From assembly GCA_024275955.1 (NCBI GenBank), contig JAJRYD010000029.1:4500-68499 (forward strand): a DNA stretch of 64,000 nt, written 5' to 3'. Shown piece by piece: positions 1,931 through 59,541 of the stretch. Position numbers and translations under genes: made by a program. Each line of letters opens with the position of its first letter. Within the stretch, counting starts at the first letter, position 1. The notes beneath the pieces were generated by a model. The model had not been told where the DNA came from. It saw nothing but the letters and a program-made list of their open reading frames with translations, and made no database searches. Origin of the DNA: Nitrospirota bacterium. GTDB taxonomy: Bacteria > Nitrospinota_A > UBA7883 > JACRGQ01.

Positions 1931-3121
1931 ATGAAAGAAAAAAGAGCTAATCTAGGGGTGTTGCCGTTTTTATTGCTTTGCGGCATCGTTGCCTTTGTTG
2001 GGCGTGGCGATACACTCGCGGAAGATTCTGGCCTATCCGGGCAATGGATAAACTCCCACTGGTTCCACCCGCTTCCGCCCATGGGCAAAAAGCCTACGGG
2101 CTTTTCGGATCTCGAAGCTTCGCTGATACCAAAGGATTGCGGTGAATGCCATGAAAAGCAGTATAGCGACTGGTCTGCTTCACGGCACTCAAAATCTATG
2201 GGGAATGGCGTTGTCGGACAGTTTCATCCGCCGTGGATAGATGACAAAATGAGAGTGAGCTGTCAGGAATGCCACGCGCCTTTGTATGAGCAAAACCCTG
2301 TCGTGGTCGCTGGCGGGGAGATAGTTAAGAACAGGCTTTATAAAAAGGATGTCGCGTCATACGGTGTTTCGTGCGCCGTATGCCATGTCCGAAAGCATGT
2401 AAGGTATGGCCCGATACCAAGAAAATTACAGGATCCAGATACGCCGCATAACGGGTTTATCGAGAAAAATGATTTTAACAGCTCCGAATTTTGCAAACCT
2501 TGCCATCAGTTCAACCCTAACGGCAGGTCGCTAAACGGAAAGCTTATGCAAGATACCTATGAACAATGGAAGCGGTCGCCTGCCGCCAAAGAGGGGAAGG
2601 TTTGCGCTTCTTGTCATATGCCGGACAGGAAGCATATTTTTCAGGGAGTACACCACGAACAGATGGTTAACGAAGGGCTTTCGGTAGATTTGGAAAGAGG
2701 GGCCGAGTACGCGACTCTTTCGGTTAAAAATACTGGGGTTGGGCATAAATTTCCGACATATGTCACCCCAAAGGTTGTGGTTTCGGGAAAGGTCATAAAT
2801 CTCGACGGAAAGGCTGTAGATGGAACCCTAAAGGAGTATTACATTCAATGGAGTGTTTCGCTAGATTTAAGTGAGGAGTATTTTGATACAAGGCTCGACC
2901 CAGACGAAACGCTTAAGGCGTACTTCAAGTTTCCTATGGAGCATTCCGGTAATATATTCGAGATAGATATCAGAGTTTACCCAGATGAATTCTACAGGCG
3001 GTTTTATGAGGCTATGATAGCAAATCCTCCAAAGGGGGTAGATGTTCCCATGCTTAAAAAAGCGCTAAAAGAAGTAAAGAGTTCGGATTTCTCTGTCTAC
3101 AACCGGCGAGTCGCGTTTTAG
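1931..3121 (+). CDS. Multihaem c-type cytochrome, periplasmic, with five CxxCH motifs
   Basis: It has an N-terminal signal-peptide-like hydrophobic segment. The haem-binding motifs are CGECH, CQECH, CAVCH, CKPCH and CASCH. Confidence 0.8.
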   Translation: MKEKRANLGVLPFLLLCGIVAFVGRGDTLAEDSGLSGQWINSHWFHPLPPMGKKPTGFSDLEASLIPKDCGECHEKQYSDWSASRHSKSMGNGVVGQFHPPWIDDKMRVSCQECHAPLYEQNPVVVAGGEIVKNRLYKKDVASYGVSCAVCHVRKHVRYGPIPRKLQDPDTPHNGFIEKNDFNSSEFCKPCHQFNPNGRSLNGKLMQDTYEQWKRSPAAKEGKVCASCHMPDRKHIFQGVHHEQMVNEGLSVDLERGAEYATLSVKNTGVGHKFPTYVTPKVVVSGKVINLDGKAVDGTLKEYYIQWSVSLDLSEEYFDTRLDPDETLKAYFKFPMEHSGNIFEIDIRVYPDEFYRRFYEAMIANPPKGVDVPMLKKALKEVKSSDFSVYNRRVAF

Positions 3122-3254
3122 TATTAAGCTGTTGATTTTTTTCTGCTCATGGTGCCTGTTAGGTTGCCGCGAGGCGAACCGTCTGGCAACTGTCTTGTTA
3201 CATCATAATCATCGTCACTTGGTTATTTTTTTTGGTAAGTCGATACCGCAATAA

Positions 3255-3384
3255 GGGGACTGTTTTCAAAAGAGTTTTTTGAGCATTTTAAGGGGAAGTT
3301 TATTTTCTAACTTCTTAAAAATAGAATCGTTAGAGATTGGCAATTTGTAGCAAAACCAAGATTGTCTTATTTGCCAACAGCCCC
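3255..3384 (+). repeat. Copy A of a roughly 130-nt conserved intergenic element (candidate structured small RNA or MITE-like repeat)
   Basis: It is near-identical to 58403..58531 on the same strand. The core reads aaaagagttttttRagcattttaagggRaagtttattttctaacttcttaaaaatag...gattggYaatttgtagcaaaaccaagattgtcttatt. A closing helix pairs GGGGaCTGTT at the 5' end with AACAGCCCC at the 3' end. The element lies in a 739-nt intergenic gap. Confidence 0.5.
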
Positions 3385-3517
3385 GCAAGGTGTGGCTATC
3401 GTGCTTTTGATGAGGCTGTTAAACTTAAAATGCTAATAAGGTTAGATATTTTCAAGCTTGGCCTGCTTTTTTGTTTTTAAGCCCTACCTGCTAGTAAGTG
3501 CAAAGGATTCGTCTCAG

Positions 3518-3546
3518 CCTTCCGGCGGAAGGTCTGTTGTTTTTGG
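3518..3546 (+). terminator. Possible intrinsic terminator: hairpin CCTTCC-ggc-GGAAGG followed by a T-rich tract
   Basis: A 6-bp GC-rich stem with a 3-nt loop is followed by tctgttgtttttgg. It lies about 135 nt downstream of repeat copy A, inside a spurious 77-aa ORF. Confidence 0.3.
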
Positions 3547-3859
3547 CAAATAGTTCACCTTTCGCATATTGCTGTGGCTGTAATTTTCATTGCAATGAAC
3601 AAGCTTTCGTATCGCTGTTTTCTGGCGGTGCTGTGCGCCTATCCTTGGCACCGATAGCCGGTGATGGAGCTAACGCAATTACTCGGCTTAAAAAGAGCTG
3701 GAGCCTATGTTACAATGCCGGATTAAGCTAGCAATACGGCATGGGGGAATGCTGGGGAGCGCGCTTGTTTCTAGTTCGGTAGAGAATATTTTATATCTTT
3801 TAGATATTTCTGCCGGCGTCAAAAATAAAATAAGCCTTGAAGGGCGGGGGTAGGAGCTG

Positions 3860-4735
3860 ATGGAGCTGAAAAACGAAGACTTTCTTGAACTAAAAAACTA
3901 TATACACAAAACGTGCGGCATACATATCAATGAGAGCAAGAAATATCTTGTACAGCAAAGGTTATCGCCTGTGGCGCAATCGCTGGGGCTTGAATCGTTT
4001 AGAAAACTTATACAAAAACTGGAGAACGATTCTGCCTTGGGAGAGAGGATAGTAGAAAGCATAACCACGAATGAAACAAGTTTTTTTAGAGATGACCATC
4101 CTTTTGGCACTTTTGGGACGATGATTCTTCCAAAGCTTGGAGAGCTGATACGCAAGAGAAAAGAGCGTCAGAATAATATGGAAGGGCCGAAAGTGAACCT
4201 ATGGTGCGCCGCGTCGTCAACAGGTCAGGAGCCTTATAGCCTTTCTATGCTGATAAGCGAGTACGTCGATTCGAATAAATATAACGGCATCTCTATAGAC
4301 GATTTTTCAATACTCGCGACAGATATTTCGTCTGAGGTTTTGTCTCAGGCTATATCTGGAGAGTATTCGAACTTGGAGGTAAGACGCGGCCTTTCAGACG
4401 AGAGAAAAAAGAAATATTTTATCAAGAGAGAACCTGACGGATGGATTCTTAGCGGAGCAATTAGAGGCATGGTCGATTTTAGAAAAATAAACCTCGCTGA
4501 AAGTTTCACAACGCTTGGCCGGTTTGATGTCATTATTTGCAGAAATGTTTTGATCTATTTTGACGACCATACTAAAGGTAGAATTTTTAGTCAATTTAGG
4601 AAGATGCTGTCTGACGATGGTTTGCTTGTTCTTGGAGCGTGCGAAAATGTCCGCCTGCTTACTGACGAATTTGAATCTTTTACACATGGGCAGACAATAA
4701 TGTATAGGCCAAAAACATCTAAGGCTCCTCGGTGA
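3860..4735 (+). CDS. cheR: Chemotaxis protein methyltransferase CheR (solitary copy)
   Basis: It carries the CheR N-terminal all-alpha domain and the SAM methyltransferase domain, with SFFRDDHPF and VWCAASSTGQEPYSL motifs. Confidence 0.85.
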   Translation: MELKNEDFLELKNYIHKTCGIHINESKKYLVQQRLSPVAQSLGLESFRKLIQKLENDSALGERIVESITTNETSFFRDDHPFGTFGTMILPKLGELIRKRKERQNNMEGPKVNLWCAASSTGQEPYSLSMLISEYVDSNKYNGISIDDFSILATDISSEVLSQAISGEYSNLEVRRGLSDERKKKYFIKREPDGWILSGAIRGMVDFRKINLAESFTTLGRFDVIICRNVLIYFDDHTKGRIFSQFRKMLSDDGLLVLGACENVRLLTDEFESFTHGQTIMYRPKTSKAPR

Positions 4736-19351: not shown

Positions 19352-19576
19352 TTATTTACAGTTTTCCAAAAACTGTTCCGTTGTTAGGCCTGCTCTGGAA
19401 ATCAATGCCCTTAAGGTACCCCTTGCGACTGTTTGATGGTTTGGTACCGAAAGTGTGGCTATATGGCCATCTTTGGTGAGGATAATATGCGAACCTCTTT
19501 GGCGTACTACCTGCCATCCGAGCCTTTCGAATGCTTTTACTATTTTCTTGGGTCGTAAAAGCGGAAGGGGCGGCAA
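19352..19576 (-). CDS. hicA: HicA-family mRNA interferase toxin (YcfA-like)
   Basis: The 74-aa protein carries RGSHIILTKDGHIATLSVPNH, which fits the HicA signature (GSH....G....vP.H). Confidence 0.8.
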   Translation of the reverse strand: MPPLPLLRPKKIVKAFERLGWQVVRQRGSHIILTKDGHIATLSVPNHQTVARGTLRALISRAGLTTEQFLENCK

Positions 19577-19783
19577 CTAAGCGGGGATCTCTATGTCGCG
19601 TGTAGTTACTGTTGGCGACATTCCCTGCTCTTCGCGTGCGGCAATACATTCTTTTGCCGCTTCCATAATGTTTTTCATTGCTTCATCCATTGTTTTGCCC
19701 TGTGATATGCAACCGGGAATAGACGGACATTCGGCGATGAATATTCCATCCTCGTCTGTAACAATAGTAACCTGCAGTTTCAT
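19577..19783 (-). CDS. hicB: HicB-family antitoxin (UPF0150 N-domain only); the start is taken at the internal Met of the 96-aa ORF
   Basis: MKLQVTIVTDEDGIFIAECPSIPGCISQGKTMDEAMKNIMEAAKECI matches the HicB/UPF0150 fold signature. The stop abuts the hicA start. Confidence 0.7.
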   Translation of the reverse strand: MKLQVTIVTDEDGIFIAECPSIPGCISQGKTMDEAMKNIMEAAKECIAAREEQGMSPTVTTRDIEIPA

Positions 19784-19823
19784 AAAAGCTCCAATATCGT
19801 ACAGTTTATGAACCTCTTGTAGC

Positions 19824-26815: not shown

Positions 26816-27155
26816 ACCGGAATTCGATAACAGAATTATTGAAAAACCTCTCACAAAAGACGAGCTTGAGAAGATGGCTAAAGGCCACAACGGAACAATA
26901 AAGCTAGTGGCAGATATTCAAAGGGAAAGAGTTGCCGCCGGCGCCAAGTGGCATAGCGGTTTGCGTAATCTTTTGGTCGCTGAAGGCTCAAATCCTGACG
27001 ATTGCTGGGGCGCCAAAATTGATATCAATTCAGGCGGGATAGTCTACGAATCGCAGATAAATAAAGAAAAACCGCAGCACAATGCGGTGGAGATAAAAGA
27101 CGACGCGGTTAGAAAAAAAATGAAGCTGTTTATAGAAAGGTTTTTCGTGCCTTAA
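26805..27155 (+). CDS. Hypothetical small protein
   Basis: It overlaps the DUF502 gene by 11 nt. I recognise no motifs. Confidence 0.35.
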   Translation: MANEPEFDNRIIEKPLTKDELEKMAKGHNGTIKLVADIQRERVAAGAKWHSGLRNLLVAEGSNPDDCWGAKIDINSGGIVYESQINKEKPQHNAVEIKDDAVRKKMKLFIERFFVP

Positions 27156-27368
27156 GAGACTGTTTTCCAAGCTTGACAGATGTAACCGAGCGGAAAAGGC
27201 AGGCGACAGAAAATACCGCCGCGGAAAAAATGATATGCAGTTTGGCGATACTTGCGATCCTACCGAGCGGTAGTGCAGAAAGGATGCTTATCACTTTGCG
27301 GCGGGGTAGTCTTACTGCCTGCTTTCTTAGAGGAATTGCAAGTTTGTCTGGCATCTCTTTCAAATACC

Positions 27369-27530
27369 TCAAAGTTTTAAATCAATCCTGCCTGAGCTTG
27401 ATTTGGTACTGAAAATTTCCTTGGCCATCTTGGATGCTATCTCTCTCGACTTGACCTTGTATTTTTTGTCGGCTATCTCTTTGCGGAACTTCTCGACCAG
27501 CTCCTTGCGTATTCCGCTTACCGGCGGCAC
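27369..27530 (-). CDS. flgM: FlgM-like anti-sigma-28 factor, 53 aa. This small gene is absent from the six-frame ORF track.
   Basis: The minus-strand ORF has a GTG start. It translates to VPPVSGIRKELVEKFRKEIADKKYKVKSREIASKMAKEIFSTKSSSGRIDLKL, which closely follows the FlgM C-terminal domain (for example B. subtilis ..[32 protein letters not shown]). A GGAGGG SD lies 7 nt upstream of the GTG. A sigma-28 -10-like CCGATAA lies about 70 nt upstream. Confidence 0.6.
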   Translation of the reverse strand: MPPVSGIRKELVEKFRKEIADKKYKVKSREIASKMAKEIFSTKSSSGRIDLKL

Positions 27531-27770
27531 TTAATTTCCCTCCAAAAAGAGATATCCCGGCAGGTTTTTACCTAATTCATCCAATACTTGCATAGATTTC
27601 TTATCGGGATTGCAGATATTTTTCATAAGGGTATAGTGATATAGGCTTTTAAAACAGCAAGTTAAGGCATTCTTCTGTGCTGGTTTTTCTGTTTTTCTTT
27701 TTTTGGAACGAGGTTTGCTCCTATCTTTGTTAAGTATAAAATATATAAGAACTTAAAACTGGATAGTGAT

Positions 27771-31676: not shown

Positions 31677-32162
31677 CCGGCAATAGGCCACGGATAGGCA
31701 AGGTATTCGGCTCTTAATCTTTAGACGGCAATATCTTAGAGAACCTGCGCTCAGCTCGCTTATGATCGAGTTTGCCAAGAAGGATGCCGGAAATAATGTA
31801 AACGGGCAGTTACACAGAATTATTTACAGGGTCTTTTTTTGTCGTACATTTTTAGTTTTTATAAACTTCTGTTTTTGCCTTTAGGCGCGCGTACGCAGGC
31901 AGTTCGTTAATTTTTCGCAAAACTACCCCTCCAGTTCCCCGCCTGCGGTCTCTACCGTTTTGACAGCCACTAGGAGTTTTCTTAAATTTTTTTTGCGTCT
32001 CTCTTGAGTTGATAGAGAAGTGAACCTCTTGCTCCTTATTTTTAAACCGTACGACAATGCAGACGGTAATGAGTTTACAAGCGTATTTTCAGTTATTTAT
32101 TCTTTAAAGCGACTTTAAGTGATTGCCTGTAAATAGTCGTCGTGGTAATGTAACTCCCTTAT

Positions 32163-39057: not shown

Positions 39058-39538
39058 GGCGCTATAATACCGCTTATCGGAGGTTTGCTGATAAAGATTG
39101 TTTGCGGGGAGAGCCGAAAGCTCAATATATGATTTGAATTTGAAGGGTGGTGGCGATACCCAAAAGGTGATGATAGAGAGCATAAAAACAGGTATCACCA
39201 AAACAGTTGGGGCGATTAAACGAGAAAGAAGCATCAACAGTAACTAAGAACAGTCTTTGGCGGTAACGGTATGGAAAACCTGTTGGTGAATTTTCAAGGC
39301 TGTTGTTGTGAATTATTATTTGCAAGACGGGTGACGCTTTGGGGGGGAATAAAATTTTCTAATAAATAATGGTTTTAGGTTTTACGGTTTGTTTTTGCAG
39401 GTGCCGGTTTCTCTGCTTCTAAAGCTGTTATAAGGTGACGGTTTGAGCGTAAAAAACAGCTCTATAAATCTTTTTGATATCGGCTGAGCGGTTCTTTATT
39501 TTTAACAAAGTATTATTTTAGGTTTGGTTCTGGTATAG

Positions 39539-39564
39539 TTGCCCCTTAATTGCAGGGGGGGCAA
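39539..39564 (+). promoter_or_regulatory. Hairpin (TTGCCCC / 12-nt loop / GGGGCAA) that engulfs the SD and the first base of the start codon of the DUF59 gene
   Basis: The perfect 7-bp stem spans 39539-39545 and 39558-39564. The G-rich SD-like GGGGGGG lies in the loop and stem. The ATG is at 39564-39566. Confidence 0.3.
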
Positions 39565-39860
39565 TGCATAAGGAAGATATTTTAGATAGCCTTAAATCGG
39601 TTATCGACCCAGAACTCGGCATAAACATAGTCGATTTGGGTTTGATCTATAATGTTAATGTCAGCGGTAACGACGTTTTTGTTACGATGATGATGACTTC
39701 ACAGGCTTGCCCGATGGGAGACCTCCTTAAAATCGAAGTGGTTGATGCCATCAGGAAGATTTTTCCGTCCGCGGGAAAGGTAGAAGCAGTTCTTACGGTA
39801 GATCCGCCGTGGACAAACGAAATGATGTCGGGCGACGCAAGGAAACAGCTTGGACTCTAA
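39564..39860 (+). CDS. DUF59 / MIP18-family Fe-S cluster assembly protein (SufT/PaaD-like)
   Basis: It carries the motif LKSVIDPELGINIVDLGLIY...MTSQACPMG. Confidence 0.8.
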   Translation: MHKEDILDSLKSVIDPELGINIVDLGLIYNVNVSGNDVFVTMMMTSQACPMGDLLKIEVVDAIRKIFPSAGKVEAVLTVDPPWTNEMMSGDARKQLGL

Positions 39861-49862: not shown

Positions 49863-51908
49863 ATGACTGATATGGATCCTGAAATATTTCGGGAATATAT
49901 GTCGGAAGTGTTCGAGTCGCTTGAAGGGCTTGACGAAAAGTTTGTCGCCCTCGAAACGAATCCAGATGACCTGAATATAGTAGATTCCATTTTTAGACCT
50001 GTTCACAGCATTAAAGGCAGTTCCGCCTTTTTTAAGCTCGATCATATTACCGGCTTTTCTCATAAACTGGAGAACCTCCTTGATGATATCAGGAAGGAAA
50101 AACGGTCTATCAACCCAACGATTATAGATGCCCTTCTCAAGGGTACCGATTTTCTTATGGAGATGTTCAAAAGGCTTGCCTCTGGCGACATGAAGGTTGA
50201 GCTTCTTCCAGATGAAAAGGACTTTATAGAGAATCTGGATGATAACCTTTCTAAAGGCGATGATAAAGCGCCAAAGACCTTTAACAGCCACCTCGACAAT
50301 ATAGACGACGCTGTCAACAGTCTTCGTGAAAGCGGTAGAGATGCCGAACTTTTAGACAAAATCTCCAAAAGCCTGTCGGTTGTCCGAAGGCTGGCGAGCG
50401 ATAAGGGGCAGGTAATAATGATAGGAGAGATTGACAGCATGCTTGGAGATGGGGCTATGCCTCAAATTGGAGTATTGGGCGACCTTCTTGTTGAACCGGA
50501 TGAGCTTCCCAAGGTAGAAAAGCTTGGCGACATTCTTGTAGGCAGTGGAGAGGTAGACAAAGAGGCTCTGGAAATGGCTCTTGCCAATAAAGAACCGGAT
50601 CAAATGGTTGGTGACGCTCTGGTAGAGCAAGGCGTAGCGACGGAGGAACAGGTAGGCAAAGCTATTGACAAGCAGAAGAAGGAGAAGGAGGAGCAGAGGA
50701 TCGCCAAACTGAGCATGACGATGCAAAAGACGATGCGCATAGACGAAGAGAAAGTCGATGAGTTTATGGAGCAGATTGGCGAGCTGGTAATCATTTCGGA
50801 AGTGTTCAACTATCTTGATAAAAGACTTAGCTCTATGGATGGAGCCGAGGTTATTTCTAAAGAATTTAAGAACGCGAACATGAATTTTTCGGAATTGACG
50901 CTAAGGCTACAGCATGGGCTGTCGGAAGTGCGGAAGGTAGCTATCAAAGGGATATTCCAGAAAATTCCACGAATAGTGCGCGATATCGCCACCGCAATCG
51001 GGAAAGATGTAGAAGTTATTACCGAGGGAGACGGTATTATGCTCGATAAAAGCCTTGCCGAGAAACTTGAAAGCCCTGTTATCCATATGGTCCGTAACTC
51101 TGTGGATCATGGCGTAGAAACACCGGATATACGAAAGGCGGCCGGCAAACCGGAAAGAGGCACGGTTCGGATTAAGGGCGAAATAATAGGTGAGACACTG
51201 CATATAACCCTTCACGACGACGGGGCTGGGCTTAATCGGGAAAAGCTTATCGCAAAGGCTATAGAAAAAGGGGTTCTAAATCAGGCTCAGGGTAGCGCGA
51301 TGTCGGACGAAGAGGTGTTTAACCTTATTTTCCATCCCGGCTTTTCCACTGCGGCAAAGGTAACGGATATCTCCGGTCGTGGTGTTGGGATGGATGTGGT
51401 TAGACGGGCTATCGACGATACCAAAGGGAAAATATCTATCCAATCCAAGCTGGGTGAGGGGTCGACCTTTACCATATCGGTTCCGATTTCCACTACGCTG
51501 GTGACTATAAACGGCCTGATTGTCGCCATAGGAGAGAGTAAGTTTATATTCCCTGTCGAGGATGTAAAGGAATCGCTAAGGCCGACCGGCGAAGAGGTCT
51601 TCTCGATTAAAGACAGTATAGAGATGGTCAATATAAGAGGAGATATATATCCCCTTATCAGGCTTCACCAAAAGTTTTCAATCGAAACCGATGTCACCAA
51701 ACCACAGGATGGCGTTTGCCTGATAATTGAAAAAAATGGAAACCGATGCTGTGTCTTGACCGACGCTATAGTGGAGCAACAGAATGTGGTGTTGAAGGAT
51801 CTTGGAGTTATTTTTCAGCGGGTAAAGTCTATTATGGGCGGAGCTATTCTGGGCGACGGTTCCATAGGACTTGTTATGAATGTAGAAGGGTTAATGGGGG
51901 AGGGGTAG
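49863..51908 (+). CDS. cheA: Chemotaxis histidine kinase CheA (copy 2, intact)
   Basis: Domains present are P1 Hpt (VHSIKGSSAF), P3 dimerisation, P4 HATPase (HMVRNSVDHGVE...GRGVGMDVV) and P5 CheW-like. Confidence 0.9.
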   Translation: MTDMDPEIFREYMSEVFESLEGLDEKFVALETNPDDLNIVDSIFRPVHSIKGSSAFFKLDHITGFSHKLENLLDDIRKEKRSINPTIIDALLKGTDFLMEMFKRLASGDMKVELLPDEKDFIENLDDNLSKGDDKAPKTFNSHLDNIDDAVNSLRESGRDAELLDKISKSLSVVRRLASDKGQVIMIGEIDSMLGDGAMPQIGVLGDLLVEPDELPKVEKLGDILVGSGEVDKEALEMALANKEPDQMVGDALVEQGVATEEQVGKAIDKQKKEKEEQRIAKLSMTMQKTMRIDEEKVDEFMEQIGELVIISEVFNYLDKRLSSMDGAEVISKEFKNANMNFSELTLRLQHGLSEVRKVAIKGIFQKIPRIVRDIATAIGKDVEVITEGDGIMLDKSLAEKLESPVIHMVRNSVDHGVETPDIRKAAGKPERGTVRIKGEIIGETLHITLHDDGAGLNREKLIAKAIEKGVLNQAQGSAMSDEEVFNLIFHPGFSTAAKVTDISGRGVGMDVVRRAIDDTKGKISIQSKLGEGSTFTISVPISTTLVTINGLIVAIGESKFIFPVEDVKESLRPTGEEVFSIKDSIEMVNIRGDIYPLIRLHQKFSIETDVTKPQDGVCLIIEKNGNRCCVLTDAIVEQQNVVLKDLGVIFQRVKSIMGGAILGDGSIGLVMNVEGLMGEG

Positions 51909-55464: not shown

Positions 55465-58098
55465 TTGAGTAAGCACGAGTTAAGCAAAAGATACGACCCA
55501 AAAGAGGTAGGCAGACGCTGGTATAAGTACTGGCTTGAAAAAGGATACTTCAAAGCGGATGATAACTCAGAGCGTCCTCCGTTTACCATAGTAATCCCCC
55601 CGCCTAACGTAACAGGCTCTTTGCATCTTGGTCACGCGCTCGATAACACATTGCAGGATATTCTCATCCGCTATAAAAGGATGAGCGGCTTTAATACCCT
55701 CTGGATGCCGGGGACAGACCATGCAGGTATAGCTACCCAGAACGTCGTTGAAAAACAGCTCGCCTTAGAAGGTACCGACCGCCACGCGCTGGGACGGGAA
55801 AAATTCGTGGAGCGTGTGTGGGAATGGAAGGAGCAGTACGGCGGAAAAATTATTGAACAGCTAAAAGAGCTTGGCGCGTCGTGCGACTGGGATAGGCAAA
55901 GGTTTACTCTGGATGAACAGCTTTCCAAAGCTGTTCGTGAGGTGTTCGTCAAGCTTTACGAAGAAGGGCTTATATACAGGGCTAAGTATATAACCAATTG
56001 GTGTCCGCGGTGTCATACAGCTCTTTCCGATCTTGAAGTTGAGTATCAAGACAGACACGGGCATCTATATGAGATTGAATACCATCTGTCAGATGGAAGC
56101 GGCTCGCTTATAGTCGCCACTACAAGGCCAGAGACTATGCTTGGCGACAGTGCCGTTGCGGTAAACCCCGAAGACGAAAGATATAAACCGTTCGTAGGCA
56201 AAAAAGTAAAACTGCCGCTTACCGATAGAGAAATTCCTGTAATAGAAGATTCTTATGTAGCGGTCGATTTTGGTACCGGTGCGCTGAAGATAACACCGGC
56301 ACACGACCCTAACGATTTCGAGATAGGCAAACGCCACGGCCTAGAGCAGATTAAGGTAATAGGCGACGATGGGCGGATGGTAAATGTTTCCGATAACTAT
56401 CTTGGGCTTAGCCGTGAAGAGTGCCGAAAAAGAATAGTGGAAGAGCTCAAAGAGCAGGGCTTTCTTAAAAGTATGAAAAAACATATTCATGCCGTTGGCG
56501 ACTGTTATAGGTGCAAGACGGTAATAGAGCCTAACCTTAGCATGCAGTGGTTTGTTAAAGCAAAACCGCTTGCGAAGAGAGCGGCGAAAGCGGTTAGGGA
56601 CGGCGAGATGGAGTTTGTCCCGAAAACATGGGAGAACACCTACTTCGAGTGGATGGACAACATCCGCGACTGGTGCATAAGCCGTCAGATTTGGTGGGGG
56701 CATAGGATACCGGCATGGTACTGCGATGACTGCGGCGAGGTGACGGTATCGCTTGATGAGGTTGTTCAATGTTATAAATGCAAAAGCAGAAAGATAACGC
56801 AGGAAAGCGACGTGCTTGATACATGGTTCTCTTCCGGTCTCTGGCCTTTTTCGACCCTCGGCTGGCCGGAAAAAACCAAAGCACTAGAGACCTTCTATCC
56901 GACATCGGTGCTGGTAACAGGGTTCGATATCATCTTCTTCTGGGTGGCGAGGATGATGATGATGGGCCTGAAGTTTATGGATAAGGCTCCTTTCTCAAAA
57001 GTTTACATCCACGCGCTTGTGAGAGACGCTAAAGGGAAAAAGATGAGCAAGTCTAAGGGAAACGTAATAGACCCGCTCGAGCTTATGTACAAATACGGTG
57101 CCGACTCTCTGCGGTTTACCATGTGCGCGCTTGAGTCGCAGGGGCGTGACATACGGATGTCGGAAAAGAGAATAGAAGGGTACCGCAACTTTGTAAACAA
57201 GCTTTGGAACGCGTCTCGCTTTGTGCTTATGAACCTCGGTGAGAACGAGAAGGTAAAAGATATTTCGGAAATAAAGCTGGATGTAACCGATAGGTGGATA
57301 CTCAGTCGACTGCAAAAGACCGCCTTTCAGGCTAACAATGCTTTGGATAAATTTAGATTTAACGATCTTGCCAACATACTCTACTCGTTTACATGGAACG
57401 AGTTTTGCGATTGGTATATAGAATTTCAAAAGACACGGCTTCAGTCCAGCGAAAAGGAAGATTCGCTTGCTGTATTGGTTTACGTTCTCGACAAGCTATT
57501 GAAGCTGTTACACCCGATAATGCCTTTTGTAACGGAAGAGATTTACCAAAAGCTTCCCGGCCACGGCGAGTCGATAATGGTTGAGGAGTACCCAACGCGT
57601 GACGAAAAATTTCTGGATGAAACGGCCGAAGCCGAGATGAAACTGGTGATGGAGGTTTTGACTTCGGCGAGGACTATAAGGTCGGAATTAAAAATTCCGC
57701 CTGATAACAAACTGGTAGCAAAGCTTAAATGTGAGACAGAGGAAATAGCAGGCAAGGTAAGCGCGCATGCCGATTCGATACGCTTTCTAGCAAAACTTTC
57801 TTCGCTCGATATCTCTGTCGAAATGGAGCGTCCGCCGACATCGGCGACAGCGGTAATGGACGATCTTGAGGTCTATATCCCGCTTGGTGGAATAATAGAT
57901 ATAGACGAAGAGAAGGCGAGGCTTGAAAAGGAGATTGCCAAAGCGGAAAAAGATATAAAGTTTTTTGAAAAGAAATTCTCAAATGAGAATTTTGTGAAAA
58001 ACGCTCCAAAAGAGGTTCTCGAAAAGGATATGTCCCGCAACGAAGAGCTTAAACGCCTTTTAGTAGGGCTTCGCGACTCGGTATCATGGCTTTCATAA
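55465..58098 (+). CDS. valS: Valine--tRNA ligase
   Basis: The class I HIGH motif (PNVTGSLHLGHA) and KMSKS motif (KMSKSKGN) are present, with a C-terminal coiled coil. Length is 877 aa. Confidence 0.97.
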   Translation: MSKHELSKRYDPKEVGRRWYKYWLEKGYFKADDNSERPPFTIVIPPPNVTGSLHLGHALDNTLQDILIRYKRMSGFNTLWMPGTDHAGIATQNVVEKQLALEGTDRHALGREKFVERVWEWKEQYGGKIIEQLKELGASCDWDRQRFTLDEQLSKAVREVFVKLYEEGLIYRAKYITNWCPRCHTALSDLEVEYQDRHGHLYEIEYHLSDGSGSLIVATTRPETMLGDSAVAVNPEDERYKPFVGKKVKLPLTDREIPVIEDSYVAVDFGTGALKITPAHDPNDFEIGKRHGLEQIKVIGDDGRMVNVSDNYLGLSREECRKRIVEELKEQGFLKSMKKHIHAVGDCYRCKTVIEPNLSMQWFVKAKPLAKRAAKAVRDGEMEFVPKTWENTYFEWMDNIRDWCISRQIWWGHRIPAWYCDDCGEVTVSLDEVVQCYKCKSRKITQESDVLDTWFSSGLWPFSTLGWPEKTKALETFYPTSVLVTGFDIIFFWVARMMMMGLKFMDKAPFSKVYIHALVRDAKGKKMSKSKGNVIDPLELMYKYGADSLRFTMCALESQGRDIRMSEKRIEGYRNFVNKLWNASRFVLMNLGENEKVKDISEIKLDVTDRWILSRLQKTAFQANNALDKFRFNDLANILYSFTWNEFCDWYIEFQKTRLQSSEKEDSLAVLVYVLDKLLKLLHPIMPFVTEEIYQKLPGHGESIMVEEYPTRDEKFLDETAEAEMKLVMEVLTSARTIRSELKIPPDNKLVAKLKCETEEIAGKVSAHADSIRFLAKLSSLDISVEMERPPTSATAVMDDLEVYIPLGGIIDIDEEKARLEKEIAKAEKDIKFFEKKFSNENFVKNAPKEVLEKDMSRNEELKRLLVGLRDSVSWLS

Positions 58099-58402
58099 AA
58101 CCTTCCTAGCCTTTATGTATCTTTAAGAGCTGGTATCTGGCGGTGTCAGCAGGCTAAACGATAATGTTCACACGGGAGCCGATTTCCGACATCTCCGCAG
58201 ACTTTCGTATATCCTGCGTTTCCTGCACTCTGTCGCGCTCCGCCTGTGTGACAGCGTAATTGTCCTTAAGGGCTATCTCTTTGGTTGGCGTGGTTACAGG
58301 CTGGGGAAATTCTGTATGTCCCGATATAGCTTCTGGCATCCTTACCTCATCTTTACCTTAGCTCGATTTTATACTTTTTGCAGGGATATTCAAAGCATTA
58401 TA

Positions 58403-58531
58403 GGGGCTGTTGGCAAAAGAGTTTTTTAAGCATTTTAAGGGAAAGTTTATTTTCTAACTTCTTAAAAATAGAGCCTTTGGAGATTGGTAATTTGTAGCAA
58501 AACCAAGATTGTCTTATTCGGCAACAGCCCC
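58403..58531 (+). repeat. Copy B of the roughly 130-nt conserved intergenic element (candidate structured small RNA or MITE-like repeat)
   Basis: It is near-identical to 3255..3384. Its closing helix is a perfect 10 bp (5' GGGGCTGTTG pairing with 3' CAACAGCCCC). It lies in the 676-nt gap between valS and bamD. Confidence 0.5.
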
Positions 58532-58762
58532 ATTATAGGGTGCCGGCATCTAAGATAGAATCTGAACGCAAGAGTGCAGGCCTCTTTTTATCTGGTTGTG
58601 GCTGGTGACAGCTTGATGCCGGAGATTCCTTTTTAACAGCTCTGCCGGATACGATAGTGGAGAGATAATTTTTTTTGTTAAATGCAAAAAGTCGTGTTTG
58701 CCGTTTGGGGAAAACTGCCTTTTGCTTTTGCTGGAGGCCAGTGCTACCGCTGGCGGGGCGAG

Positions 58763-58786
58763 ACAGCTTTGGCTTAGCTGTTTTTT
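58763..58786 (+). terminator. Rho-independent terminator on the plus strand (ACAGCT-ttggctt-AGCTGT followed by TTTTTT), overlapping the bamD stop codon
   Basis: A perfect 6-bp palindromic stem with a 7-nt loop is followed by a T6 run on the plus strand. The bamD stop at 58774-58776 lies inside the hairpin. Confidence 0.4.
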
Positions 58787-59541
58787 AGTTTTTTTAGCTC
58801 TTCAAGTGCCGCTTTTGCCTGTAATGCCTCTTTTGTTTCGGCAAAGTTTTCTACGATTCTCTGAAAAGTGTTTCTCGCTTTGCTGAACGCTTCTTCTTTC
58901 ATGTACGATTTGCCTTTTAAAAGAAGCGCTTTTGGTGCGTAACGGCTTTTTGGATGTTTTGCTACAAACTCCTCTGCTCTCGATATGCAGGAGACAAAGC
59001 TGTCTATCTGATAATAAAACTCGATTATGTAGATATCCTTTCGGGATATCATGTCGGTCAGCTCTGCTATCTTACTTTTAGCAAAAGGGATTGCTGAATG
59101 ATCAGGGTATTTTATTATAAATTGTTCGAACAGATCTTTCGCTTTTTGAGCCGGTGTTTGATCTCTAGGTATTTTTCCCAGCGACTGATAATGGCTCATC
59201 GCTTTGTAGAAAAGGGCATGGTCAGTGGTGGATGTCATCGGGTAGAGTTCGACAAAGCTCTCGTAGGACGTTTCGGACATTTCATACTCTTTGTTCATGT
59301 AGTATGAATCGGCTACTCCAAGCAGAGCGTGAACCTGAAAAGGGCTGTCTGGAAATTCGTCCAAAATCTGCTTGTAATACTTCCTGGATAGATCGTACTT
59401 ACCGTTGGTGAAGCGGTAGTTGGCATCGTTAAAAAGCTCCAGTTCTTTTTTTACGATGTCATCAGTTTTGCACCCGGAAAGGAAAAGTACCGCGGTGCAG
59501 GCTACGGCGGCGATTTGGATTTTGGGCAAAATCTTTTTCAT
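58774..59541 (-). CDS. bamD: Outer-membrane protein assembly factor BamD-like TPR lipoprotein
   Basis: A lipoprotein signal with a lipobox (LFLSGC) is followed by TPR repeats. The size and architecture match BamD/YfiO. Confidence 0.65.
   Translation of the reverse strand: MKKILPKIQIAAVACTAVLFLSGCKTDDIVKKELELFNDANYRFTNGKYDLSRKYYKQILDEFPDSPFQVHALLGVADSYYMNKEYEMSETSYESFVELYPMTSTTDHALFYKAMSHYQSLGKIPRDQTPAQKAKDLFEQFIIKYPDHSAIPFAKSKIAELTDMISRKDIYIIEFYYQIDSFVSCISRAEEFVAKHPKSRYAPKALLLKGKSYMKEEAFSKARNTFQRIVENFAETKEALQAKAALEELKKLKNS

Follow-up and report, generated by a model that had tools for sequence, protein, structure and literature searches.

A 130-base repeat in two intergenic spacers is probably a miniature inverted-repeat element

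A repeat of about 130 bases that occurs twice in the DNA analysed here is most probably a miniature inverted-repeat element (MITE), that is, a piece of ordinary selfish DNA rather than a novel gene for a structured RNA. The DNA in question is a single stretch of 64,000 nucleotides, called the window in what follows. MITEs are non-coding derivatives of insertion sequences that have kept only the terminal inverted repeats recognised by a transposase. Their sizes range from 50 to 500 bp (review PMC10969869). The repeat is 129-130 bp long and carries no transposase gene, it is bounded by terminal inverted repeats, and a target-site duplication is found at one of the two copies that can be read. 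What is new is a MITE family member in a poorly sampled lineage; the MITE as a kind of element is known.

Copy A lies at 3255-3384 (130 bp, 34.6% G+C) and copy B at 58403-58531 (129 bp, 36.4% G+C). Both are recognised by their 91% identity to each other, and neither is assigned a strand of its own. Relative to one another they are direct repeats on the same strand, 55 kb apart. Once the single extra A of copy A is removed, the two copies differ by 11 substitutions, which corresponds to 91.5% identity, or 90.8% if the gap is counted; BLASTN aligns them with E = 5e-48. An earlier note on this DNA had reported a near-identical recurrence at 58403-58531 on the same strand, and its coordinates prove to be right, with 91% identity over 129-130 nt.

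The pair is the sole long repeat of the window, and a BLASTN search down to word size 7 found no third copy within the 64 kb. Similarity between the copies ends at GC-rich terminal inverted repeats, whose consensus is GGGGCTGTTGGCAAA. Outside the element no homology between the two spacers was found, in agreement with the earlier statement that the sequences flanking the helix are unrelated. The element is AT-rich, at 35-36% G+C against 46% for the whole window.

The ends of the element can be read most clearly in copy B. Its left terminal inverted repeat (58403-58417, plus strand) is GGGGCTGTTGGCAAA, the family consensus, and the same 15-mer is found in inverted orientation at the right end of copy A (3370-3384, minus strand), the reverse complement of which is again GGGGCTGTTGGCAAA. 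The right terminal inverted repeat of copy B (58517-58531, minus strand) has the reverse complement GGGGCTGTTGCCGAA. The two ends of copy B form a perfect 10-bp inverted repeat, GGGGCTGTTG/CAACAGCCCC, and match at 13 of 15 positions when the arms are extended. No other 129-nt segment of the window has a perfect 10-bp terminal inverted repeat. The left end of copy A (3255-3270, plus strand) is a variant, GGGGACTGTTTTCAAA, with one extra A and with TT replacing GG. Its ends form the same stem as those of copy B over 9 bp with a 1-nt bulge (GGGGACTGTT/AACAGCCCC). The GC-rich closing helix of 9-10 bp that had been described around both copies is therefore real, with 10 perfect base pairs in copy B and a 1-nt bulge in copy A.

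Copy B is also flanked by a short direct repeat. The hexamer ATTATA is read from the sequence at 58397-58402, immediately to the left of the element, and again at 58532-58537, immediately to its right, and is a candidate target-site duplication. Of 63,828 window positions, 55 have a 129-nt segment with an exact 6-nt repeat on both sides (0.09%; 8.6e-4 per position). The match runs on as GGG if the first three G of the element are counted. The direct repeat might then be read as 8-9 bp (ATTATAGG(G)), a length that would fit IS1016; this reading was rejected, as it requires asymmetric ends. No target-site duplication was found around copy A.

These features can be placed in a simple model of insertion, based on the mechanism reviewed for elements of this kind (PMC10969869). 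A transposase encoded elsewhere in the genome and supplied in trans would bind and pair both ends of the element. The element would be inserted at a staggered cut in the target, and repair of the stagger would leave a short direct repeat, ATTATA in the case of copy B. Neutral drift after insertion may then have erased the duplication around copy A and turned its left arm into the variant seen now.

Two short stretches near copy A resemble ends of the element. At 3412-3436, with no strand assigned, GAGGCTGTTAAAC is similar to an element end and is followed by CTTAAAATGCTAA, the reverse complement of positions 3281-3292 in copy A; this possible fragment of a related element is uncertain, and neither its inverted-repeat match nor its 13-mer of the element interior is significant by itself. 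At 3534-3553 on the plus strand, CTGTTGTTTTTGGCAAATAG may be a solo end-like fragment, also uncertain. It agrees with 3368-3377 at 10 of 10 positions, overlaps a hairpin noted earlier as a terminator, and is likewise not significant by itself. Both fragments may be debris of older insertions of related elements.

The repeat can be read in a different way, as a structured small RNA gene in two paralogous copies, the GGGG...CCCC helix being the closing stem of a functional fold. In its favour, the two copies share an orientation and an intergenic position. Their predicted folds are also somewhat more stable than those of shuffled sequences: the z-scores are -2.1 and -1.6 for the plus strand, -3.1 and -3.05 for the minus strand (z -1.6 to -3.1 overall). 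Most of this stability comes from the terminal inverted repeat, so a hairpin is formed on either strand, as expected of a DNA palindrome.

Of the 12 differences between the copies, 5 lie in the 15-nt terminal arms, namely 4 of the substitutions and the one indel, and pairing is broken there. A hairpin GAAGTT/AACTTC shows a G-to-A change without compensation. The covariation check with RNAalifold proposed in the earlier note returned compensatory changes in 0 of 37 plus-strand pairs and 0 of 36 minus-strand pairs, a comparison of two sequences that has no statistical power.

Known RNA families and expression signals were searched for as well. Rfam 15 gave no match at the gathering threshold in the whole window, not even a tRNA, and in both spacers it gave chance-level noise only at E up to 10. 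The earlier statement that the repeat belongs to no known RNA family therefore stands at the gathering score. Within the conserved unit no sigma-70-like promoter was found, and no run of T follows the closing stem on either strand. A sigma-54 promoter was considered at TTGGCAATTTGTAGCA and rejected: the GG-to-GC spacing is one base short of the consensus, and copy B has GGTA.

A small RNA gene would not be expected to carry a flanking direct repeat, and more diverged copies of the element, described below, contain frame-shifting indels. The terminators cited in favour of a transcript sit in non-homologous flanks. With two sequences compared, nothing points to a structured RNA; the small-RNA reading is not supported and must be considered very improbable. 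A closing stem and core that are both conserved are what the inverted repeats of a transposon would look like if read as RNA. Thus, of the two possibilities named in the earlier note, structured RNA or MITE, the second is retained on the inverted repeats, the 6-bp duplication of copy B, the AT-rich non-coding sequence, the further copies and the shared ends and length, and the first finds no support, there being no Rfam match, no compensatory pairs (0) and no promoter or U-tract.

The setting of the two copies is shown by the genes around them. Copy A lies in a spacer of 738 nt (3122-3859) between a multiheme cytochrome c gene (1931-3121, plus strand) and cheR (3860-4735, plus strand). Copy B lies in a spacer of 675 nt (58099-58773) between valS (55465-58098, plus strand) and bamD (58774-59541, minus strand). 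Both spacers are among the longest of the window, where most genes are less than 150 nt apart, and the earlier description of unusually long intergenic regions of about 700 nt is accurate. Copy A starts 134 nt past the stop codon of the cytochrome gene and copy B 305 nt past that of valS. The neighbouring genes of the two copies are unrelated.

Probable intrinsic terminators had also been placed 135-230 nt downstream of each copy. Terminator-like hairpins do exist at 3517-3539 and 58760-58784, 133 and 229 nt away. They are not more frequent than in shuffled sequence (2 sites against 1.2 +/- 1.1, and 1 against 1.5 +/- 1.1), their distances differ, and the flanks in which they lie are not homologous. 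Where valS and bamD converge, the second hairpin overlaps the bamD stop codon. The terminator-like hairpins are not part of the element.

Information about the second spacer can be obtained from a syntenic relative (L008), in which the order response regulator, valS, bamD is kept. The valS-bamD gap measures 31 nt there against 675 nt here, in a relative whose BamD is only 52% identical, a distance too great for a true empty-site comparison. Because the gap is only 31 nt in the relative, the valS-bamD spacer of the window is regarded as lineage-specific extra DNA. The element is absent from this relative and from a second one, L009.

The same spacer may hold a 61-aa open reading frame on the minus strand (58154-58339; MPEAISGHTEFPQPV...). 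It has a purine-rich stretch for ribosome binding and, right next to copy B, a promoter-like site (58393-58366). The frame sits in the spacer DNA that is missing between valS and bamD of L008. No match to it was found in Pfam or NCBIfam. An inverted match between this frame and 51117-51161, a stretch inside cheA, was dismissed as chance.

Other long stretches of the window without an open reading frame of at least 150 aa are found at 26816-27770 (955 nt), 39238-39808 (571 nt), 31677-32162 (486 nt) and 19352-19823 (472 nt). The window also carries cheA, cheW-like, cheR and multiheme cytochrome genes. Among 5.8 billion proteins the closest non-identical BamD shares 52% identity, and the best match with a name, from a Nitrospinota MAG, shares 46%. 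This DNA seems to come from a motile, respiratory bacterium that is poorly sampled.

The element may also be a MITE that has been co-opted. It would then act in the 3' or 5' UTR of its neighbours (cytochrome/cheR, valS) as a hairpin that affects mRNA stability, termination or expression. Correia, ERIC and RUP elements are reported to have such effects. In support, each copy follows a plus-strand gene, at 134 and 305 nt and in the same orientation, a long hairpin would form in any read-through transcript, and the left half is the best conserved over all four copies known. On the other side, two copies are uninformative about orientation bias, and a search of the element gave no promoter or terminator signal. 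Co-option is in any case compatible with the main explanation and does not offer a different origin. An effect of the hairpin on transcripts of neighbouring genes is possible, if speculative, and co-option as an account of the repeat is unlikely.

Further copies were sought through proteins that gene finders call in error. The only open frame of the element is on the minus strand and comprises 40-43 codons; it is not kept in frame in diverged copies. Its translation was used as bait for spurious gene calls, first in a word-indexed search and then in an exhaustive HMM search. The word-indexed protein search returned P0025 (53 aa, on an NCBI contig of 95,149 bp), and the exhaustive search returned P0025 again together with P0026 (70 aa, on an NCBI contig of 7,029 bp). 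Both contigs differ from the contig of 108,116 bp that carries the bamD of the window.

In tblastn, P0025 and P0026 each match both window copies only by switching frame part-way. This indicates that they are relatives at the DNA level, with indels and lower identity, and not a conserved peptide. The ends of the element are recognisable in them. Back-translation of P0026 gives ATG-GGG-CTG-TTG-CCG-AAT, which equals the right end of copy B, and the C-terminus of P0025, ...TTT-TGG-AAA-CAG-TCN, equals GACTGTTT, the left-end form of copy A. Over all four copies the left half of the element is the part best conserved. The family would thus have at least four copies at graded divergence, two of them read as DNA and two deduced from proteins, on contigs that possibly belong to other genomes.

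Nucleotide searches added no further members. A scan of the genome collection for one 20-mer common to both copies gave 7 matches, all of them chance matches of 20-21 nt, and no relatives of the element were found in the plasmid, phage and E. coli collections. With blastn, none of 5,426 complete E. coli genomes matched the element, which thus shows no similarity to ERIC/IRU or other E. coli repeats.

Being palindromic and intergenic, the element might instead belong to another class of repeat, such as REP/BIME units, integron attC sites, palindrome-associated elements of IS200/IS605 type or duplicated regulatory regions. A REP unit measures 20-40 nt, against 130 nt here with a non-palindromic core. 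An attC site begins with RYYYAAC and ends with GTTRRRY; in the element this order is reversed, with GTTG on the left and CAAC on the right. IS200/IS605 derivatives are without terminal inverted repeats and target duplications, both of which are present here. A duplicated operator or promoter is unlikely because the genes flanking the two copies are unrelated. Taken together, these classes are a highly improbable source of the repeat.

A MITE depends on a transposase made elsewhere. Neither the window nor any fetched locus was found to hold a transposase gene flanked by matching ends, and a motif of IS1595 type, adapted from the catalytic signature of ISApl4 (H.N..E..W), was absent from the six-frame translation of the window and of the fetched loci. 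A degenerate 17-nt pattern, GGGGCTGTTGRMAAAAG, was found at 23 loci in viral contigs, 0 of which have an inverted partner; in most of them the pattern seems to occur within ordinary sequence.

Elements with the same ends are found in metagenomes. A scan with the pattern GGGGCTGTTG-N98-122-CAACAGCCCC gave at least 120 loci (L010-L129) with 121 elements. Among the matches listed, these fall into 65 clusters whose interiors are mutually unrelated, and none is similar in its interior to the window element. End positions 11-15, which the query does not force, are 63-75% A in the cluster representatives listed, giving a shared end GGGGCTGTTGAAAAA(G/C), and conservation across the clusters listed stops at about position 18. 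An exact 5-bp duplication flanks 31 of the 121 elements and a 4-bp duplication 11 of the 121, again among the matches listed; for 5 bp about 0.1% is expected. Rfam found no family in 20 metagenomic loci with related elements, save for one unrelated tRNA.

The window ends have the same 10-mer and an A-rich continuation, GGGGCTGTTG-GC-AAAAG, and one metagenomic variant (L047, GGGGCTGTTGCCGAAAT) matches the right arm of copy B at 15 of its first 16 positions. What links the window element to the metagenomic ones is 10-16 nt at the ends, together with length. On this reading the end type of the window element is widespread among short mobile elements, which strengthens the transposon explanation.

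Pairs of end-like sequences 500-5000 bp apart in the at least 120 metagenomic loci were considered as a possible autonomous partner. They proved to be neighbouring MITEs and not insertion sequences. Matches of one metagenomic representative to plasmids were likewise rejected as relatives, since they arise only through an unrelated interior hairpin motif. This motif, GAGATTGCTTCG...CGCAATGAC or GTCATTCTGAGCGCAGCGAAGAATC, is often carried in the interiors (L029:3797-3925 and many others). It occurs 19 times on a megaplasmid of Novosphingobium resinovorum and also on plasmids of Methylosinus, Halomonas and Aulosira, and no feature is annotated beneath it.

One cluster of 142-nt elements with the same 10-mer (GGGGCTGTTGACAATTC...; L012, L018, L030, L045, L046, L051, L103 and L111) has TA on both sides in 5 of its 8 members. 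TA flanks are typical of insertion of the IS630/mariner type. Since duplications of different length (5 bp, 4 bp and TA) occur with the same 10-mer, the 10-mer alone does not define one transposase family.

The targets of the metagenomic elements have features of their own. Many elements with 5-bp duplications sit centrally in palindromes (for instance L035:5180-5335, L073:1487-1645, L070, L057, L097 and L104). A semi-palindromic target recurs, ..TAATAGGGG|ACAGT|C(A/C)CCTATTA.., and other elements (L035, L073 and L128) lie in loops of unrelated hairpins. Outside the duplication, the two flanks of the matches listed show more complementarity than shuffled pairs do (4.2 against 2.6 of 9 positions). 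Either a preference for hairpin loops as targets or nesting inside another repeat family may be responsible.

The lengths of these elements are not evenly distributed. Among the matches listed there are peaks near 120, 130-131 and 139 nt, while lengths of 125-128 or 133-137 nt are uncommon. The two window copies (129 and 130 nt) coincide with the main peak of these matches. When each of the 65 clusters listed is counted once, the periodicity has a Rayleigh R of 0.52 at a period of 9.75-10 nt, a value reached by 0 of 3,000 randomisations. Steps of about 10 nt, or one helical turn, suggest, speculatively, a torsional or helical-phase constraint on the pairing of the ends of very short transposons. 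A comparable length dependence has reportedly been seen in very short derivatives of IS50.

No paper containing the end sequence, and so no published description or name for it, was found in the literature, where ISApl4, discussed below, was the one relevant find; ISfinder lies outside that search and may already catalogue the ends. A tentative and rather doubtful extension of the MITE reading would make the window element one branch of a large, apparently unnamed superfamily. Its members would share ends of GGGGCTGTTG followed by an A-run, mostly 5-bp duplications and lengths of about 120, 130 and 140 nt, would occur in many environments, and would be moved by a transposase that is possibly a relative of IS1016/IS1595 with an atypical stagger.

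Annotation. The repeat is better annotated as a MITE than pursued as a regulatory RNA. As a MITE it helps to explain two unusually long spacers in a tightly packed genome, and it marks past activity of a transposase in a poorly sampled lineage. The metagenomic set, with its shared termini, target duplications and 10-nt periodicity, could interest students of end pairing in short transposons.

One close likeness is to the metagenomic elements of the form GGGGCTGTTG(A)5(G/C)...CAACAGCCCC, which have an identical terminal 10-mer, an A-rich continuation, a modal length of 129-131 nt and short target duplications. They differ from the window element in their unrelated interiors; in addition, GC separates GTTG from the A-run in the window element, whose duplication is 6 bp against their 5 bp.

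A second comparison can be made with the IS1016 subgroup. Duplications of IS1016 type are 7-9 bp long, typically 8 bp. A member of this subgroup, which is part of the IS1595 family, is ISApl4; its inverted repeat is GGGGCTGTACTAGA, and its direct repeats are AT-rich and 8 bp long (PMC12561309). The first 8 nt of the window element, GGGGCTGT, agree with the ISApl4 inverted repeat at 8 of 8 positions; its ends begin with GGGGCTG, and its target duplication is AT-rich too. However, the ends diverge after position 8, and the duplication length of 7-9 bp does not fit: with symmetric ends the repeat of copy B is 6 bp, and most of the metagenomic look-alikes have 5 bp. Judged from those first 8 nt, an enzyme like that of IS1016/IS1595 would be a lead and not a finding.

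Ends of the Tn3 family, some 38 bp long, start with GGGG, have an inner TAAG at positions 35-38 and are associated with duplications of 5 bp. Tn3-derived TIMEs thus resemble the element in the GGGG start and resemble its metagenomic look-alikes in the 5-bp duplications. Unlike in these TIMEs, TAAG is present in the left ends only (positions 35-38 in copy A, 34-37 in copy B) and in neither right end, and the duplication of copy B is 6 bp. A TAAG starting at position 35 was seen in 1 of 130 ends of cluster representatives among the matches listed. The element therefore does not fit a Tn3-derived TIME with GGGG/TAAG ends of about 38 bp and a 5-bp duplication. The element is filed as a MITE without an assigned parent family.

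Among MITEs, target duplications vary. Those of the Correia and RUP elements are TA and those of MITEAba12 are 9 bp, against 6 bp here, the named families being compared by description only. In other respects the element resembles the bacterial MITEs described in a review, namely Correia/NEMIS of Neisseria, RUP of Streptococcus pneumoniae, MITEAba12, Nezha and Chunjie (PMC10969869). It shares with them its size, its inverted repeats, its direct repeat, its AT-rich sequence without a transposase, its intergenic position, apparently its several dispersed copies, and its potential to form a long hairpin.
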